A stretch of DNA of 64,000 bases. Source: Octopus vulgaris. Lineage: Eukaryota. A model generated the notes under the pieces. It was not told the DNA's origin, did no database searches, and saw nothing but the letters and a program-made list of their open reading frames with translations. Within the stretch, counting starts at the first letter, position 1. The number at the start of each line of letters is the position of its first letter. Made by a program: the position numbers and the translations under genes. The stretch lies in NCBI GenBank assembly GCA_951406725.2, contig OX597821.1:98332001-98396000 (forward strand), in the 5' to 3' direction. This document shows positions 19,576 to 57,690 of the stretch, piece after piece.

Positions 19576-22500
19576 CCACATGTTAGAAGAATAAAAAAAA
19601 TAATTGTTTTTATTCTTTATGTTTGTGTGTTTATGTCAAGTTACAATAAAACAGTTTAATATTAAACTGAAGGATTAGTCACCGATTTTAGTAGAGCTCA
19701 TATTATACTTTCACCCCTCTTCGTTTAAGAGTATAGGAGTGCATGTCTATGCATGCTGGCATGTGTGTATATAAGACCTCATAAATGGATGTCTAGAACA
19801 TATGTACAAGCGTGTTCAGGCTAGGACTGAACTTCAGAAACATTTTTTTTATATGCATCTCAGTGATATAATAGATAAGAATGTTACAAAACTTAATATT
19901 CCTGACTCTTTAATCTAATTTGGAGTTTCATGTGACTGCAGCCATCAACCACCACCAAACAAGACACAAAATAATAAGTCTTTATGCAGGTGTTCAACTT
20001 GCTAAAAGTAGCAGCCAAATTTCCCTCAAATCATACATCATCTTAATAAGAATACACTGCACGATGTAGTCCCTAACATATACACAAAAAGATGGGATGA
20101 CCAAGGTTGGAACACTGTTTGATGCAGGTCAACCAAGGGTTAAACAACAACATACCTATTGGATCAATGATAAAGGAGCTAAAAATAGCAAACCCCGTCT
20201 CCTTCAAATGATCCCCCCACCCAACTTACCAGTAATGCGCCACTCATGTCTTTATTCAAATTTGTTAAGTACTCACATTTATAACATCAATTAAATTCAG
20301 ACATTTCCCAACCATAAATCTACAGAGGACCAGTACTCATATCGTATTAAGAAAGCACTTAGCATTGGATTATTACAAAGAAGTGTTCCTATGAAAAGAA
20401 TTTAACTGGACGCTTCAAGCCAAGGAAGTGCAATGCATTGCTAGAATGGCTTACGGCAGTGAGTCATACCGCCAGAACTCACCTCTTCACAGACACAAGA
20501 TAGCGTTGGCAACAGGATATAGTAAACAACTTGCAGTTAGTTTTCCAATATCTGAACTGAATTCCCAACCAAGATATCCGATCTCACATAAACATTAATA
20601 GGCATGAGCAAGAGCCAGAGTGACAGTGAAATTTAACAACCTTAACCCTTTAGCATTTAAGCCAGCCATATCAGGCACCAAATATTCTCCCTGCTTTATG
20701 TTCAAACTAACCAGATCCAGCTTTTCATACCTACCCTAGAATGTCATTCGAAAAGTAAACAATAAAATCATCGAAATCTCAAAGTTACAAGGATAAAGCA
20801 GGATTAATTCAAAACATCATCATCATCGTTTAACGTCCGTTTTCCATGCTAGCATGGGTTGGACGGTTTGACCGGGAATCTGGGAAGCCAGAAGGCTGCA
20901 CCAGGCTCCAGTCTTATCTGGCAGTGTTTCTACAGCTGGATGCCCTTCCTAACGCCAACCACTCCGTGAGTGTAGTGGATGCTTTTTACGTGCCACCTGC
21001 ACAGGTGCCAGGCGAGGCTGGCAACGGCCACGGTCGGATTGGTGCATTTTACGTGCCACCGGCACGGAAGCCAGTCGAGGCAGCACTAGCATCGGCCACG
21101 ATTCGGATGGTGCTTTTTACATGCCACCGGCACGGAAGCCAGTCAAAACAATGTGAATAAATAAGCATTACATTTGACAGCAATCTGAACGTTAAAGGGT
21201 TAAAGTCTCAAATGAGATCACTTATGTAAGTTACCAGGCTTTCAGTGGAATGATATGCTCTGAGTAGAAAGATCCATCTTGAAAGGTCAATGCTCCTCAG
21301 CTGCAACGTCAATGTTTTAGTCAGAAAGGGAGGCAATGCCCATGACCTTTTACAGGACATCCAAGACTGGGAAGGAGGGTCTTCAAACCAGAAACCTACC
21401 TCAAATACTTGCAACAGAGTGAGGCCTTCTAATGGCACTCAGGGTATTTAACCCTTTCATTACCATATTTATTTTGAGATGCTCTGTGTTTCTCTCAATC
21501 ATCATCATCATCATAATTTAACGTCCGCTTTCCATGCTAGCATGGGTTGGACGGTTCAACTGGAGTCTGGGGAGCCCGAAGGCTGCACCAGGCCAGTCAG
21601 ATCTGGCAGTGATTCTACAGCTGGATGCCCTTCCTAACGCCAACCACTCCGAGAGTGTAGTGGGTGATTTTATGTGCCACCGACACAGGTGCCAGATGAG
21701 GCTGGCGAACGGCCATGCTCGGATGGTGTTTTTTATGTGCCACCAACACAGGTGCCAGACGAGGCTGGCAGACGGCCACGCTCGGATGGTGTTTTTATGT
21801 GCCACCGACACAGGTGCCAGATGAGACTGGCGAACGGCCACGATCAGATGGTGTTTGTTACGTGCCCACAGCACGGAGGCCAGTCGATGCGGTACTGGCT
21901 ACGGCCACGTTCGGATGGTTTTCTTGTGTGCCACCGGCACTGGTACCACAAAGATACAAATTCCATTGATGTTCATCTATTTGATTTGTTTTGATTTTCA
22001 CTTGCCTCAACAGGTCTTCACAAGTGTCACAAGAAGGAAGGTATGCACAGGTGGACTGACTACGTCCCATGTAGGGGCCACGGGTTATGGCCTGACTAGT
22101 CTTGCCGGGTCTTTGGATGGTATTTTTATGTGTCACCGACACAGGTGCCAGATGGGGCTGGCAAACGGCCACGATTGGATGGTGTTTGTTACGTGCCCAC
22201 AGCACGGAGTCCAGTCGATGCGGTACTGGCTACGGCCACGTTCGGATGGTTTTCTTGTGTGCCACAAAGATACAAATTCCATTGATGCTCATCTATTTGA
22301 TTTGTTTTGATTTTCACTTGCCTCAACAGGTCTTCACAAGTGTCACAAGAAGGAAGGTATGCACAGGTGGACTGACTACGTCCCAGGTAATTTTAAATAT
22401 AACAAGGAATTTAGAAAAATAACTTAGTCACCATTAAGCTAGTGTTAGTAACATAAATTGTGACTAAGGTTTGGTGGAAAAATTTTAATTCAAAACTTAA

Positions 22501-30572: not shown

Positions 30573-31728
30573 CCCTATACCCACTCTCACTGAGCAGAAA
30601 GGTGTTCAAGAGGGCTTCTGAGACTGGTAGAATGGTACGAAGAAAGTATCCTCAAATGGGGAGAGCTGGACCTGCCAGTTCAAGTGACAAATACTAACCT
30701 TCACAATCATCCAATACAGTGAGTACACTTGGATTTTTCCACATATTTTCCCCCACCCAACCAAAAAACGAAATCTTGGGGAATATTTGCTAGAATAAAA
30801 AAGGGGAAGGAGATCATGTGCTTTGTAGCCTTACTAGTAGGACACATTCATGCAGACTCACATATACACCACAGGCAAGCACATACACAGACATACATGG
30901 ACATAGACTGACATACACACAGAGGCATATGCACAGCCATACACACGTCACTGATACATGAATATGGAAAGATACATACATATATACATACAATGTACTG
31001 GTGCACACACACACACACACACAGAACTTTACACAAACAAATACAAATTCCACTGCCGCCCAGCCAAAGGCAAAAAAAGGTGTGGTTTCTGTCTGACACA
31101 AAACAACAGGCTGCAGTAAATGGAGAGTCAGAGAAATATACCAGAAGTTCAGATTAGATTGTCACTATAGTGACATTTAGCCACACACACACACACACCA
31201 GTCCCCCCCCCCACCCTGGCAATTTCATACAAATGTACCACTACTATACAATGACAAAAGATTAACATTTCTGGTAATGGTGATGATGGATGGAAAGTAG
31301 AGATGTGGTGGGAAGGAGGATGGGGGGGTGGCAAGAGAGAAAGAGAGAGAGAGATACTACGAGGTGGATGGGGGTGAAGAGGACAGAGAATAGGTTGTCT
31401 GACTAGAAATGCAAGAGGGTAGGTAGGGGGAAGATAAGTCTCTTGTCTCATTGGCTACAAACAGTGTTTGTAGTCATGGCACTTTGACAGACTGGGCCAG
31501 TCCACCTAGCTGTATATAATATAGATACTAGGTGATAGTTCAGTCTACCAAGATGTAAACATGTACCATGTGACTAAGACAGTCCAGTTTGTTTAGTGTG
31601 TTCCCAACCTTCCCTATGCTCTCCCACCTGCATCCTTAAGAAATTAATTTTTTTCTTTTTACATACCTACTACAAAAGTAATATCACATCTGAAGATGAA
31701 AAATCAATTTTTTGATAACTAATTTATT

Positions 31729-32104
31729 GAGATGGCAAGTATACCTCACATTGTCGTGCAGTTACTGTTTATATCTCGTTCAGAGATTTATTATTGTTTG
31801 CATACAGTTTTTCGAGATCAGTGACGATAAGTTACTGGAAAAACGATATAAGGATTTGCATTGGGACCCCTTTCATCGAAAACCGGTGATTGTCGTACGC
31901 TGATGACAGGCAAATACCTAGAAACTGCAGTCCGTGCGTATCACTTAGGTTGACGAGGGAAGGATGACCTCCCTTTGCAAATACCATAAGGGCACAGAAA
32001 GTGTGCCTAAAGCCAGCTGGAGACGATGTTCTCCTGCGGCTACAAGCTACAGTAACACCCACCCTTAGTGGTTAGCCATATTGAGATGGCAAGTATACCT
32101 CACA
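31729..32104 (+). mobile_element. Retrozyme-like element: 354-bp hammerhead-containing monomer with terminal direct repeat
   Basis: 27-bp direct repeat TATTGAGATGGCAAGTATACCTCACAT at 31725 and 32079 (period 354). 9-bp TSD TAATTTATT at 31720-31728 and 32105-32113. Internal hammerhead and several GC-rich hairpins, no credible ORF. Confidence 0.75.
31881..31951 (+). ncRNA. Type I hammerhead ribozyme, predicted cleavage after C31932 (GUC)
   Basis: Stem I CGUACG/CGUGCG, extended past an internal loop by GUGAU/AUCAC. Core CUGAUGA at 31900-31906. Stem II (C)AGG-CAAAUA-CCU(A), then GAAA at 31921-31924. Palindromic stem III ACUGCAGU and a GUC triplet. Confidence 0.85.
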
Positions 32105-32565
32105 TAATTTATTCTCTTATTTTAAAAGTGGACTGCGCAACAGTACTGTGGAATAATAAAGTTCTTAGTGTGCTTATGAAATATCATCATCATCGTTTTA
32201 ATGTCTGCTTTTCCATGCTTGCATAAGTCGGACAAAATTTGTTGAGGTGGATTTTCTACAGTTGGATGCCCTTCATGCTGCCATTCCTCACCTGTTTCCA
32301 AGTAAGGTAATATTTCCCCCGTCACCAGACAATGTCTCGGAAAAATTAGAAACAAAGAACACTACTTGCATAATGGTGACGCTCACAACCATCACATGAT
32401 GTTAGGGCAAAGAGAGAGTAGCATGCATGTGCGCATATACACAAACATACATCAGGCTTCTTTCAGTTTTCTTCATTTACCAATTTCACTCACAAGGCTA
32501 TGGTAGAAAATACTTGCTCAAGGTGATTTTTAAAAATCTTTTGATGTTATTCTGGAAAGTGATTC

Positions 32566-35930: not shown

Positions 35931-38541
35931 ATGAAGGCAACTGCTTCAACAATATGTAAATATCTATACTTTGCCCCAAAAGAATACTCCCACCCAAGTT
36001 ACTACAATAAGCAAGATGTAACAAGTAAAGGGTTGTGCCCCTAGATAGGGTACATGACTGATTACCCCAGTTTGCTTGGTTGACAAGGGATTACATTCTA
36101 AATTGAAATTTGAGTAGTTTTTAGTATAAAAGGGTATTTAAATATGAAAATAAAAACAGTCATCATAGTATGATTAAAAAAATAAAGCAAAAACTAGATT
36201 TTTTTTTAAAATCTAAAATATTGATTTATTTCTAATTCTTGAGGAAAACTCACATCCTTCACCCGTCTTTCTCACTCATTTCTGTTTTCAGACTTGGAAC
36301 TTGTACAACATTGGCTGCAACTCACATGGGACTTCATTCAGGCAGATCAATACTAACCTCACCTTAAATACCTTACGCATAAAAGAAAACAAATATTATA
36401 TAAAATGGTGGAAATAGGGTGAAAAAAAAAACCGGGGGAGACTAAGATTTAAAAAGAAAAGCTTTTTTTTTCCCTCATTTTGTTTAAAACCCCCAAAGAA
36501 TAAAATTTAAAAAAACATCTGCCAAATTCCTGCTAAAACATCTTCAAATATAATTTTAATAGATTTGAAACTCCCTTTACATTATGTGAGTGTGTGTGTG
36601 CATTTTCTTCCTCATCCAGCCATTAACCATCTTTTCCATATTATTGATCCAACTTTCCTACTAATCTTCTATACCATCATCACCATATAGGACATCCAAC
36701 CCCTACCACAGCTGCCACCCTATCCTTTAAGATCTGCTGGATTGAGTAACAATGGTATCAACTAGCTCTCTCTTTTCTAGTTGCTACTTTAGAATTGTTC
36801 CATATGGAATGAGGGGGGGGGGGGGTGAAAAGCAGAAAAATTGATTTCTACCATGAAGAATCAGATGCTTCAAGGAAGAAGCGCATTTTTTTTTCTTTCT
36901 CATTTATTTACTTTTTAGGTCATTGAATCCCCCATCCCCACTGCTGAGTCCCCTTCAGCTTTCCCAACCAAACAGAAAAAAAAAAAGAGGAAAAAAAAAA
37001 CTTGGGGTTTAAATGTTTTCAATTCAGTCATTCAGGTTTCATCACTCAATTTTGGGATTTTAAAAAAATTCTTATTATTTCACTTTTTTTTTTTTTTTTT
37101 TTTGCATGTTAGCATGGACAGGATGCATTTGGAAAATTTATACATTTACACACACGTATATATATATATACATATTTCTTGAGGTCTTCTGTTTCTGATA
37201 CCAACACAATTTAATATTGGTATTGTCACTGTTTATAGCTCCAGTCACACCTGATCCAGCAGATCCATGATCAAAAGGGATGCAATCAAACCAACTCTCA
37301 ATCCTACATTATCCAACATGTTTGAGCTGTTGTTTTTCTTTTCTTTTTCTAAGACATTAAGGTTATAAAATTTGAGACAGATTTTGCTGCTATTTCTAAC
37401 AAATTAAGCAACCATAATGATGCTTCCTGTTTGTATTGATTGCACACTGCAATATCATATCTTCCTAATTAGAGTAAAATCCCCAATCAATGCCAGGATG
37501 AGTCATTGAACCCAGTTTTAGATTTCAAAATTTTCACAGGAAATTGTAAACTAGTAAAAAGTATTGAACTTGTGTTGATAAGTGTTCGACATTTCTTCAT
37601 TTTTCTGGGTTTTAAATGAATCCTGACTAAGCAGACCTCAAATCAAAGCTATTCCAGCTATCATCATCATCATCCTCATTTAGCGTCCGCTTCCCATGCT
37701 AGCATGGGTTGGACGGTTCAACTGGAGTCTGGGAGGCCAGAAGGCTGCACCAGGCCCAGTCTGATCTGGCAGTGTTTCTACGGCTGGATGCCCTTCCTAA
37801 CGCCAACCACTCCGTGAGTGTAGTGGGTGCTTTTTACGTGCCACCCGCACAGGTGCCAGACGGAGCTGGCAAACAGCCATGGATGGATGGTGCTTTTTAC
37901 GTGCCACTAGCACGGGGGCCAGGCGAGGCTGGCAACGGCCACGATCGGATGGTGCTTTTTACGTGCCACCGGCACGGGGGCCAGGCGAGGCTGGCAACAG
38001 CCACAAATTGTTTACTCAGGTAGTGTACATAGTACTGTATTATCCAAGGTGTCCATTTTTAAGACACTAAATAGAGTTCAATTTGAGAGATTTGGCAACC
38101 ATTTCTAGCAAATCAAATAGCCGCATAGAGGCTCTGTAGTTGGTTTGACGCAGGAAGATGAAATGGTGCCAACAAGCATTTGTTTTTAATTAGAAGTTCT
38201 TACATTCTTTTATAAACATAAATTTATGACAAAAAGCAAAAAAACAGCTGAATCTTTCCACTACCAATTTATAATTCAATATTCGAAGATACTAAAGCAT
38301 CAATGAATTACATTCATTTATTATTTTGCTTTTTAATACGTCAGCATGAATGGAAATGGCTTTTCAGCAAAAAGTGTACATATATTGGTGGTGCAATTGA
38401 TTTTTAGGAAAAACTAGATGTCTGCTACCCCTATCCCACCTGCTGTTCTCCTTTGCTACTCAACCAGCAAACAAAGCTTTAACTTCTTTTTGGTATTTAG
38501 ATAGGACAAGGTTTGTTTGGCTGCATGGCTACAACCATCTT

Positions 38542-47021: not shown

Positions 47022-50000
47022 TGAAAGTTCATCGTAGCAAAATGTAAAGCTGTGATTCGAACAACATAGCCGAAGGTGGTGGTGGTGGTGGTGGTGGTGA
47101 TGGTAGTGGTAGTACTATGATGGCAGTGGTGGTGGTGATGATGATAGTGGCGTCGATGATGGTGGTAACAGCTGTGGTGGTGGTGGTGACGATGGTTAAT
47201 TGTTGTATGTGAGACAGAGAGAGAGAGATGAACAATGCAAACTGTATTTTTCAAAACAAAAATCCCTAATTGCAGAAATTATTCCTTATCGTTGTTGCTC
47301 AGATTATTAACAACAGCGGTTATCAAACATCAATGACATCCTGCATAAAATGTCTTATATATTTGTCCGTGTGTATGTGAGACTGAATGTGTAATAAACA
47401 GGAATACAAACAGCAACAGAAAAGCGAGTGGTCACCATTGGAAAGACAGAGCGAGAGGGAGAGAAAGAGGGAGGCAGAGAGATCAGCCAGACCATCACAA
47501 CCAGTAATAGTAATAGTAGTAGTAGTAGTAAGAGCAGCAGCAGCAGCAGCTTAGGTGACACCTCACCTAACAGCTGGAACAGAGAAAGAGATAATGGAGA
47601 GGTGTGAATTGAGGTGATTGCAGTAGGCAACTAGTGTGCGTGTGTGTAAGGAAAGGAGAATGAAAGCATGTAACAGTGCTTATACAATAATTCGAAGATA
47701 AGGCTTTTATTTCACTCCATCCCAAAATACAGAGTTTCTTCAGTTTCTAACACCTCAAAGCGAGAGAGAGAGAGAGAGAGTGATATGCATAGGTGCATGT
47801 GTAAGTGAATAGTTATGATGTGGAGAAAATAGTGTGTGTGTGTGTGTGTATGGAGATAGAGAGAGAAATTCGCAAAGGAAAATGAAGTACTCAATAAGTG
47901 AAGCAGAGTTGTGTATATTCTATTAGAAGCTGAGGTTTCTCAAATCATTTTATGTTGCCGATTATTGGAATAATTTCCAAAGAGAAGCCTTATGATACAT
48001 GCTAGCAACTGTTTTGACAACCAATCAAATCCTGATGACTAATCATATATTGATGTGTTTGTGAATATTTTTGCTTGTACATTGTCACACTACCTTCCAT
48101 GATCAACTGTTTAATCAGCATTGCAAAACTTAACCCTTTCGTCACTGTATTTATATTGAGATGCTCTCTGTTTCTTTCAATTACTTTAAATATAAACAAA
48201 GAATTTAGTAAAACAAGCTTAGTTATCATTCAACTAGTGTCAGGAACATAAATTGTGACTAAGGTTTGGTGGAAGATTTTAATTCAAAACTTAAGAAAAT
48301 AAGACAACAGAGCCAGAGCTGGTTTCAGCCGGGTTGGTAACAAAAGGGTTAAAGTTGACAACCATAAGTATCAGTCCAAGATAGTGGAATGGTGGTGGAA
48401 TTGTTAAAGCTTCATGCAAGACATTTTGCAGTATTTATTTTGGCTCTCTGCTTTTTGATGACTATTCCAGAGGACTATGCTGGTGCCAAGCTGCACTGGC
48501 TTTTGCTTTTCCTTTGGACAATATGGCATGGAGAAAGATGACTTGCATGCATGGGCAACTGCATGGCTTTGATACCACTACCTGGCACCTTTAGTGCCTT
48601 TCATGGAGTCTACTCTATAGCAAGTATTCAGGCTAGCTTTCCAGTTTGAGCATACCTGCCAGTCGATAGGCACCACCTTTCCTTATGATGAAAAAGATTC
48701 ACCCTCATTACACTTCATACTGTATTCCAATTACTTACTCTACCTTAATCTCTTCCTCTCTGACTCGCTCTTATTTTCATTTCCTTTCCTCAAACTGGTA
48801 TTTACTGCATCCACCTAATTCCCATCTCTAATCATACCAGTACCGGTGGCACATAAGAGAACCATCCAAACGTGGCCGTTGCCAGTGCCACCCCAACTGG
48901 CTTCTGTGCCGGTGGCACGTAAAAAGCACCATCCGATCGTGGCCGTTTGCCAGCCTCGTCTGGCACCTGTGCCAGTAGCACATAAAAAGCACCCACTACA
49001 CTCATGGAGTGGTTGGCGTTAGGAAGGGCATCCAGCTGTAGAAACACTGCCAGATCAGACTGGGCCTGGTGCAGCCTTCTGGCTTCCCAGACCCCAGTTG
49101 AACACGTCCAACCCATGACAGCATGGAAAGCGGATGCTAAACGATGATGATCACACTCTTTTTACACTCTAGCACATTTATCTACCCACCCACCTTTTCT
49201 GTTCCTCTATCCCTATTCTCACTTTCTCTTGTACATATCCATTGTACCTTGAGGGTATTCCCCCACCATATCTGACTCTTTCCAATTGTATTCACCTCTT
49301 CACCAAGACACCTGTTCCTCATTCATGTTCTCACATCTTTCAATATTATCCCAATACACTCTGTGAAGTGGTTGGCACTAGGAAGGGCACTTAGCTGTAG
49401 AAATCATGCCAAAGAAGACACTGGAGCTCAGCACAGCCCTTTTGCTAATTGGTTCCTGTTGAACCATTCAACACCTGCTGGCATGGAAAAAGGGGGTCAT
49501 TAAATGATGATCACATGCAGAGATTCTTCATTAAACTGAACCAACTGCCCAAGCTAAATGAATCATCATCATCATCATCATTTATTGTCCGCTTTCCATG
49601 CTAGCATGGGTTGGACGGTTCAACTGGGGTCTGGGAAGCCAGAAGGCTGCACCAGGCCCAGTCTGATCTGGCAATGTTTCTATGGCTGGATGCCCTTCCT
49701 AATGTCAACCACTCCGTGAGTGTAGTGGGTGCTTTTTACATGCCACCGGCACAGGTGCCAGGCGGGGGCCAGGCCAGGCTGGCAACAGCCACAATCGGAT
49801 GGTGCTTTTTACATGCCACCAGCACGGGGGCCAGGCAAAGCTAGCAAAGGCCACGAACGGATGGTGCTTTTACGTGCCACCAATATGGAGGCCCGTCGGG
49901 GCGGCACTGGCAACGGCCACGTTGGAAGGCCATTGAGTCACAGAAACTATGCAAAGTAGACATTGGAGCTCAATGCAGGCAATGGAGCCATCAGATCCTG

Positions 50001-56305: not shown

Positions 56306-57690
56306 GTATTTCGTCTGCTGCTACGTTCTGAGTTCTAATTCCGCCGGGGTCCACTTTGCCTTTCATCCTTTCAGGGTCGATTAAATAAGTACCAGTTACA
56401 CACTGGGGTCGATATAATCAACTTAATCCATTTGTCCCCTCTATGTTTAGCTCTTTGTGGGTAGTAAAGAAATAGTATATATTATGCCAAGCCCATGCTG
56501 GCATGAAATGATACGGACATTAAATGACGACTGCAATAGGTTTCTTTTCCGTTTCTGTTGACCGAATCTATTCACAAGGCCCAAATTGTCATGTAGTAAG
56601 ACTGAACCGAAAGCCATGTGAGTGGGAAGTGAACTTCATAACCACACATCCATGCCTACGCCTATATATATGCGGAGGGAAAGGCAGTGAGCTGGCAGAA
56701 ACGTTAGCACGCCGGGCGAAATGTGTAGCCGTATTTCGTCTGCCGTTACGTTCTGAGTTCAAATTCCGCCAAGGTCGACTTTGCCTTTCATCCTTTCGGG
56801 GTCGATAAATTAAGTACCAGTTACGCACTGGGGTCGATGTAATCGACTTAATACCTATGTCTGTCCTTGTTTGTCCCCTCTGTGTTTAGCCCCTTGTGGG
56901 TATTAAAGAAATAGGTATTTTGTCTGCCACTACGTTCTGAGTTCAAATTCCGCCAAGGTCCACTTTGCCTTTCATACTTTCGGTGTCGATTAAATAAGTA
57001 CCAATTACGCACTGGGGTCGATATAATCAACTTAATCCATTTGTCTGTCCTTGTTTGTCCCCTCTGTGTTTAGCTCTTTGTGGGTAGTAAAGAAATAGTA
57101 TATATTATGCCAAGCCCATGCCGGCATGAAGTAATACGGACATTAAATGACGACTGCAACAGGTTTCTTTTCCATTTCTGTTGACCGAATCTATTCACAA
57201 GGCCCAAATTGTCATGTAGTAAGACTGAACCAAAAACTATGTGAGTGGGAAGTGAACTTCATAACCACACATCCATGCCTATAGATGCGGAGGTAAAGGC
57301 GGCAAGCTGGCAGAAACGTTAGCACGCCGGGCGAAATGCGTAGCCGTATTTCGTCTGCCGTTACGTTCTGAGTTCAAATTCCTCCGAGGTCGACTTTGCC
57401 TTTCATCCTTTCGGGGTCGATAAATTAAATACCAGTTATGCACTGGAGTCGATGTAATCGACTTAATCCATTTGTCTGTCCTTGTTTGTCCCCTCTGTGT
57501 TTAGCCCCTTGTGGGTAGTAAAGAAATAGGTATTTCGTCTGTCTTTATGTTCTGAGTTCAAATTCTGCTGAAGTCGACTTTGCCGTTCATCCTTTCGGGG
57601 GTCAATAGATTAAGCACCTGTTGCGTACTGGGGTCAATCTAATCGACTGGCCCCCTTCCCCAAAATTTCGGGCTTTGTACCTAGAGTAAA
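56306..57690 (+). repeat. Local tandem duplication of a ~610-620-bp unit made of SINE B pieces and a spacer
   Basis: The ~185-bp spacer at ~56475-56658 recurs at ~57098-57281 with the same flanking SINE junctions. Confidence 0.8.

Follow-up and report, generated by a model that had tools for sequence, protein, structure and literature searches.

What left a 376-bp insert with a predicted hammerhead ribozyme in its middle, and from what template was it copied? The locus lies in a 64,000-nt stretch of Octopus vulgaris contig OX597821.1 (positions 98,332,001 to 98,396,000; hereafter the window). Our comparison of the insert with its relatives makes it likely that it is a copy of a high-copy 354-nt hammerhead repeat, that an autonomous Penelope-like element (PLE) supplied the enzyme that pasted it from RNA, probably a circle formed by self-cleavage and rejoining, and that the repeat family is the specific target of an L1/Tx1-type LINE.

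Layout of the insert and its predicted hammerhead ribozyme

A preliminary description of the window had read the insert as one 354-bp monomer plus 22 bp between two copies of a 9-bp target-site duplication (TSD), and we found this layout at the positions given in Table 1. The insert also proved, as described, to have no poly(A) or simple-repeat tail and to be non-coding, with no open reading frame of at least 100 aa in the window overlapping it. We numbered the unit 1-354, corresponding to window 31752-32105. The 27-nt repeat at 31725-31751 and 32079-32105 is 100% identical at a spacing of 354, and the last 4 nt of the left TSD (TATT) also match the element, producing a microhomology at the 5′ junction. 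The 354-nt monomer folded better than all 100 shuffles (z −4.9); folds around the 3′ end sites A and B were not better than shuffles. Other dispersed repeats in the window carry 62-63-bp and 184-bp tandem units (21668-21948, 37826-38004, 49763-49882, and 56731-57098).

Table 1. Coordinates of the insert and its parts in the window
Feature	Position	Strand	Basis
Left TSD, 9 bp, TAATTTATT	31720..31728	+	sequence
5′-truncated second turn (unit 332-354), equivalent of the PLE upstream pseudo-LTR	31729..31751	+	sequence
One full 354-nt unit, ending 3′ at 32104/32105 (family end A, the putative first reverse-transcription start)	31752..32105	+	sequence, end census
45-nt tail sequence; elsewhere an optional 3′ extension up to family end B	31752..31796	+	54/125 arms end at B
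Target site of the L1/Tx1-type LINE; empty in the window copy	31875..31888	+	~14-bp TSD in occupied copies
Type I hammerhead	31886..31944	+	sequence, covariation
Right TSD, TAATTTATT; first T common to the element end	32105..32113	+	sequence

The type I hammerhead that had been noted inside the insert could be read directly, with core elements CTGATGA (31900-31906), GAAA (31921-31924), and GTC (31930-31932) and a predicted cut at 31932/31933 (unit 181/182). Stem I is bulged, stem II is short with a C-A mismatch at its base, and stem III consists of 2 bp with a palindromic loop. Rfam gave no hammerhead match in the window, either at the gathering threshold or at E up to 10, and the minimum-energy fold of the 65-nt motif differs from the active fold (z −1.26); we therefore tested the hammerhead by variation among copies. 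In 26 genomic copies chosen for diversity from 121, 89% of cells were paired, compared to 22-49% in controls with slid partners (the rows are related to one another, and the paired fraction is not a probability), and two-sided changes were seen at 8 of 20 pairs. Among the 121 distinct hammerhead stretches, a few of which are possibly chance matches, the tertiary 3-8 pair was C3-G8 in 81, U3-A8 in 28, U3-G8 in 11, and the broken C3-A8 in one. Stem III and its loop were palindromic in 108 of the 121, and the palindrome differs between subfamilies. Judged by the conservation of the 3-8 pair and of stem III, the predicted ribozyme of the 354-nt repeat is under selection.

A short palindromic stem III is described in the available text of PMC4209133 as the dimer-dependent form of the hammerhead. 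Cofolding of two hammerheads did not yield an active dimer. For Xenopus retrozymes, the accessible portion of bioRxiv 10.64898/2026.07.22.740005 reports that only one of nine dimers cleaved in vitro, so self-cleavage by the predicted ribozyme cannot be assumed.

Copies of the repeat end at two fixed 3′ sites

The family has more than 1,300 copies: a 28-mer near the 3′ end of the unit has 1,312 exact matches in the 2.8-Gb genome and a 38-mer at the ribozyme has 204, and backward-sequence controls of both returned none. A protein from this genome had its nearest named relative in Argonauta hians, pointing to an octopod. The exact-match counts include passive copies, since another dispersed repeat, common to two loci (L198:384-791 and L232:906-1314), contains a 62-nt piece of the 354-nt repeat.

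We followed the ends of all 90 matches of the 28-mer on one contig (C1), which fall into 71 loci; one LINE-interrupted locus was dropped, and the repeated fragments of a local array were counted once. Of the resulting 125 arms, 63 ended at site A (unit 343-354), 54 at site B (unit 38-62), and 8 elsewhere, such that two fixed sites, separated by 45 nt, account for 117 arms. Site A is unit 354 (window 32105), and site B is mostly unit 43-48 (window ~31796). The 5′ ends were scattered, showing variable truncation. An inverted arm was present in 43 of 70 loci, and 40 of these 43 paired an A-ending arm with a B-ending one. The same ends were recovered in 60 loci picked by the ribozyme region instead of the 28-mer. 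With 10 complex loci left out, a TSD of at least 7 nt flanked 15 of the 33 loci lacking (TA)n, compared to 7% of shuffled pairs, and 28 of 61 loci had (TA)5 no more than 25 nt from an end, against a background of 3.6%.

The preliminary description had predicted copies with variable permutation points, which is not what we observed: 3′ ends are fixed at unit 354 or unit 45-48 in those 117 arms. It had also proposed TATT as the microhomology that primes reverse transcription, but TATT lies at the 5′ junction, where the cDNA ends, and the end where the reverse transcriptase (RT) starts has a 1-nt overlap. Entry of the RT into a circle at arbitrary points, primed by such target microhomology, would account for the monomer-plus-overlap length and for the TATT overlap; given the two fixed sites and the position of TATT, we regard it as hardly tenable.

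Tandem multimers were likewise expected, and these do occur. Loci with two hammerheads are few (20 exact pattern matches at 11 places, including a 10-unit array and a trimer), and the window copy carries one hammerhead. The long array (L251, G000:C4:13619900-13625200) comprises 10.2 units spaced 0-5 nt apart, has a U3-A8 core, and shows an ordinary A end and 5′ truncation. Its units are near-identical to each other and only 87-88% like the window unit; it is a candidate source locus or a candidate recent local amplification.

Several other arrangements of the repeat were observed. At L168 (G000:C1:11167244-11170271), a 119-bp tandem array alternates a repeat fragment (unit 302-43) with (TA)n. 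More distant related hammerhead repeat families (profile E 1e-7 to 1e-9) were seen at L136, L344, and L109:23-181, two of which have the LINE described below at the matching offset. What looked like an extended 5′ part of the repeat was rejected after it proved to consist of LINE insertions. Contigs from 4 of 24 listed runs, all presumed to be RNA, cover the repeat and lack the unique flanks; they are deeper over its 3′ half and tail, and contain one joint that goes back 354 nt, as any tandem junction would give.

The repeat as a probable non-autonomous Penelope-type element

PLE copies are described, in the accessible parts of PMC8557442, as partial tandems with an inverted 5′-truncated arm and a tail on one end, and the tail lies between two RT start sites (PMC11167929). 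The repeat has fixed 3′ ends, one of them extended by an optional tail, together with variable 5′ ends, partial tandems, and inverted 5′ arms; this is the published PLE footprint. The repeat has no open reading frame, and the RT and GIY-YIG frame of an autonomous PLE is absent from it. Each unit is a non-coding stretch of a few hundred nucleotides with a hammerhead and no LTR, and tandems with several hammerheads exist, as in retrozymes. Given the footprint, the missing reading frame, and arms that run round into the same unit, we conclude that the 354-nt repeat is a non-autonomous PLE-type element, that is, a non-LTR retrozyme, an already known kind. Non-LTR retrozymes have been proposed to be PLE-derived and non-autonomous (PMC7229834; bioRxiv 10.64898/2026.07.22.740005, both in the text available). 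The initial assignment to a multicopy retroelement of this kind, mobilized in trans, is supported; the family has TSDs, dimers, and one array. By contrast, a length of just over one turn, which had been read as a fit to a 354-nt circle, does not single out a small circle: an autonomous 4.7-kb PLE in the same genome shows the same structure, a 504-bp partial tandem that is 100% identical.

The preliminary description had named shared ends together with an abutting PLE reading frame as the mark of a solo pseudo-LTR. The first part was found, and the second was absent from every copy examined. Solo pseudo-LTRs, or 5′-truncated pieces of an autonomous PLE, would explain the shared 3′ ends and the tail, which are PLE features. 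However, the arms run on into further turns of the 354-nt unit, as many as 10, and the only reading frames found joined to copies are those of LINE insertions, which contradicts this reading for the window subfamily. With a period of 354 and no abutting PLE frame among the copies examined, we consider it very improbable.

Also improbable, if a shade less so, is a SINE-like element that relied on an APE LINE for its movement, for example the LINE that targets the repeat. TSDs of 7-14 bp and a young LINE physically associated with the repeat are compatible with this possibility. Nevertheless, the repeat has no 3′ end in common with the LINE and no poly(A); its optional tail, its A/B inverted arms, and its (TA)n bias match PLEs; and the LINE is itself site-specific, whereas the repeat is dispersed.

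Autonomous PLEs are present in the genome, with open 781-aa RT and GIY-YIG frames in 9 of the 17 PLE regions fetched. The repeat profile found no pseudo-LTR match in 37 GIY-YIG loci (~4 families), a small sample of 6136 candidates. Repeat copies near three PLE loci (L109, L120, and L123) were considered as a link to a parent and discarded, as they were inserted separately and lie outside the pseudo-LTRs. PLEs are described as single-ORF elements. In a young PLE family with the 781-aa frame (L117:1768-5468, G000:C6:133342000-133351900; also L114, L115, L116, and L121), a second open frame lies upstream and overlaps the 781-aa one; it reaches up to 479 aa and matches nothing in Pfam.

Circular or linear template

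A cut linear monomer would halt the RT at the cut site, 173 nt from A. We observed that 44 of 110 arms cross the ribozyme cut site, that none ends within 5 nt of it, and that 12 exceed one turn. Overall identity within a copy is uninformative (~5% divergence), and we used subfamily-diagnostic positions instead. Two turns within one insertion disagreed at 27 of 314 such positions, compared to 3841 of 9000 between loci, and inverted arms within one insertion disagreed at 53 of 584, indicating that both turns and both arms come from one haplotype. Conserved catalysis combined with the lack of a stop at the cut site is most simply explained by cutting and rejoining, and circles have been shown for coral, mussel, and axolotl retrozymes (PMC7229834, in the text available). 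We put an RNA circle as the template at somewhat better than even.

The same PLE mobilization could instead have used an uncut linear dimer or multimer, produced by read-through of a tandem locus, with no circle copied; we regard this as a serious possibility, though one short of even. The 10.2-unit near-identical array and the trimer would also give turns of one haplotype. The 5′ ends were not enriched at exactly one turn, where 6 of the 33 at risk stopped, a count like those of other bins, and, for an anole PLE in vitro, ribozyme cleavage was not needed and unprocessed RNA was the dominant substrate (PMC11167929). On the other hand, a linear multimer leaves the catalytic and stem III covariation across subfamilies unexplained, its progeny would shorten with every round while long sources are few, and the single long array found is the one that resembles the window unit at only 87-88%.

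With an RNA circle as the preferred template, we propose that the GIY-YIG nuclease of a PLE would nick AT-rich DNA and that the RT would start at site A or B and run back through the ribozyme site. For the window copy, the RT would have started at A, completed one turn plus 22-27 nt, and then joined the target at TATT. The circle would be made from two-hammerhead transcripts of dimer or array loci, a step to which we give the same better-than-even standing; otherwise, an uncut multimer would serve. The window copy itself would not give rise to a circle, as its single hammerhead has a stem III of the dimer type.

A LINE inserts at a fixed site upstream of the hammerhead

The first sign of a second element was three repeat copies with a LINE 3′ end joined at unit 121. 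In larger stretches, the LINE inside the repeat measures 5.0-5.3 kb. ORF1 matches PF00098 and has a CCHC motif; ORF2 has an APE endonuclease (PF03372), an RT (PF00078), and a C-terminal zinc finger, features of the L1 group, and the nearest solved structure is LINE-1 ORF2p (E 9e-53) versus R2 at E 2e-23. Its domains and its target specificity suggest that it is a putative Tx1 element; no named Tx1 reference was among its protein matches.

We located LINE copies by exact 3′-end patterns, a census that misses diverged copies (396 candidates). Of 51 exact ends, 44 lay at one site just upstream of the hammerhead, 6 at the target motif before another element, and 1 elsewhere. Subfamily 1 contributed 37 ends, with 32 in the repeat family, 2 in a distant hammerhead family, and 3 at the motif followed by another LINE. 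Subfamily 2, which is ~80-83% like subfamily 1 and uses the same site, contributed 14: 10 in the repeat, 3 at the motif with a further element after it (recognizable as a LINE in one case), and 1 elsewhere. A LINE is counted as target-specific when more than 20% of its copies are flanked by one target (PMC4494074, accessible text); here, 44 of 51 are directly in a hammerhead repeat and 50 of 51 are at the target motif.

Of 18 long stretches, 14 include the 5′ start of the LINE; the host target motif immediately precedes it in every one, and their TSDs match exactly over 7-17 nt, most often 14 (unit 124-137). The remaining four comprise two 5′-truncated copies, one interrupted copy, and one (L238) without coverage of the 5′ junction. 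The landing site is 12-25 nt upstream of the catalytic core, and the hammerhead stays whole 3′ of the LINE end.

If a single LINE insertion had later been amplified together with the repeat as a composite, all junctions would lie at the same offset, as seen, and one locus has an inverted duplicate of the LINE end and repeat. However, over 28 loci the LINE ends are 94-99% alike while their hosts are 44-98% alike, with a correlation of −0.09; TSD letters follow the host subfamily on both sides; and the second LINE subfamily uses the same site. The host-specific TSDs and uncorrelated identities argue for independent insertions, and we see almost no room for composite amplification.

The target motif is loose, with 2-8 matches in the 64-kb window and, by extrapolation, ~10^5 genome-wide, which argues that something beyond the motif must aim the LINE. 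One idea, which we consider doubtful, is a chain of parasites in three tiers, in which a PLE copies the ribozyme-made RNA circle and the LINE evolved to land just upstream of the ribozyme because it makes use of it. Transcription would come from the repeat, and the hammerhead would cut ~45-60 nt past the LINE end, leaving a target-matching RNA 3′ extension that would help to aim the next insertion. The LINE's use of the hammerhead cut is speculation; if the chain were true, it would explain specificity for a loosely conserved DNA motif.

Rfam returned nothing at the LINE 5′ end. LINE relatives in metagenomes are only 23-37% identical; in their 80 loci, the repeat profile had no match and one weak hammerhead-like motif was seen. 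At L237:1097-1130 and other 5′ ends, the LINE start resembles the repeat's own unit 113-127, just upstream of the target. At L345, L350, and L354, a sequence with a T-rich start follows the target motif past the second-subfamily LINE, and at L354 the hammerhead cut site is exactly where a similar sequence starts; this sequence is possibly a third targeting element.

Significance and comparison with known systems

The copies offer direct evidence, at the level of junctions, that PLE machinery pastes retrozymes, a proposal that had so far rested on co-occurrence and on similarity to pseudo-LTRs. With its start sites mapped, the 354-nt substrate allows the question of circular versus linear templates in PLE transposition to be tested. 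The LINE adds a self-cleaving retroelement, a target class that we did not find in print, to the targets of such elements, with high site fidelity across diverged hosts, and the means by which it is aimed is relevant to programmable retrotransposon insertion. In a repeat annotation of Octopus vulgaris (PMC13282606), L1-Tx1 and Penelope families are listed as active, and the available text does not contain the word ribozyme. We found neither a cephalopod retrozyme nor a hammerhead-targeting LINE in the portions of the literature accessible to our search; Repbase, Dfam, subscription papers, and supplements, which lay outside it, may list such families.

Compared to metazoan non-LTR retrozymes, as presented in the available text of PMC7229834 and bioRxiv 10.64898/2026.07.22.740005, the repeat shares a 150-450-nt unit with GC below 50% and no ORF, long TSDs, a canonical type I hammerhead with a palindromic stem III, and the occurrence of monomers, dimers, and arrays. 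In contrast to them, it consists mostly of dispersed partial copies, its self-cleavage is predicted and its circular RNA putative, its PLE start sites A and B and inverted arms are mapped directly, and no homologous pseudo-LTR was found in the 37 PLE loci.

With PLEs (PAc, PMC11167929; PMC8557442; PMC4209133, the comparison covering the text available), the repeat shares two 3′ ends that define an optional tail, partial tandems, an inverted 5′-truncated arm with the tail on one end, AT-rich and microsatellite targets, and the U3-A8 core variant. Unlike PLEs, it has no RT/GIY-YIG ORF, its 45-nt tail is slightly above the reported 30-40 nt, and the distance from its cut site down to the first start site is 173 nt.

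Tx1 families target transposons, snRNA genes, satellites, and microsatellites (PMC4494074, PMC4640811, and PMC8869645, in their accessible text). Similar to target-specific Tx1 elements (Tx1L in Tx1D, Keno in U2, and Tx1-Mar in Mariner-N4; PMC4494074), the octopus LINE has a fixed site in a multicopy target, an APE endonuclease, an RT, a zinc finger, a CCHC ORF1, and tandem stacking. It differs from the Tx1 families described in the available text of that paper in that its target is a hammerhead retroelement, entered across subfamilies with little common target sequence.
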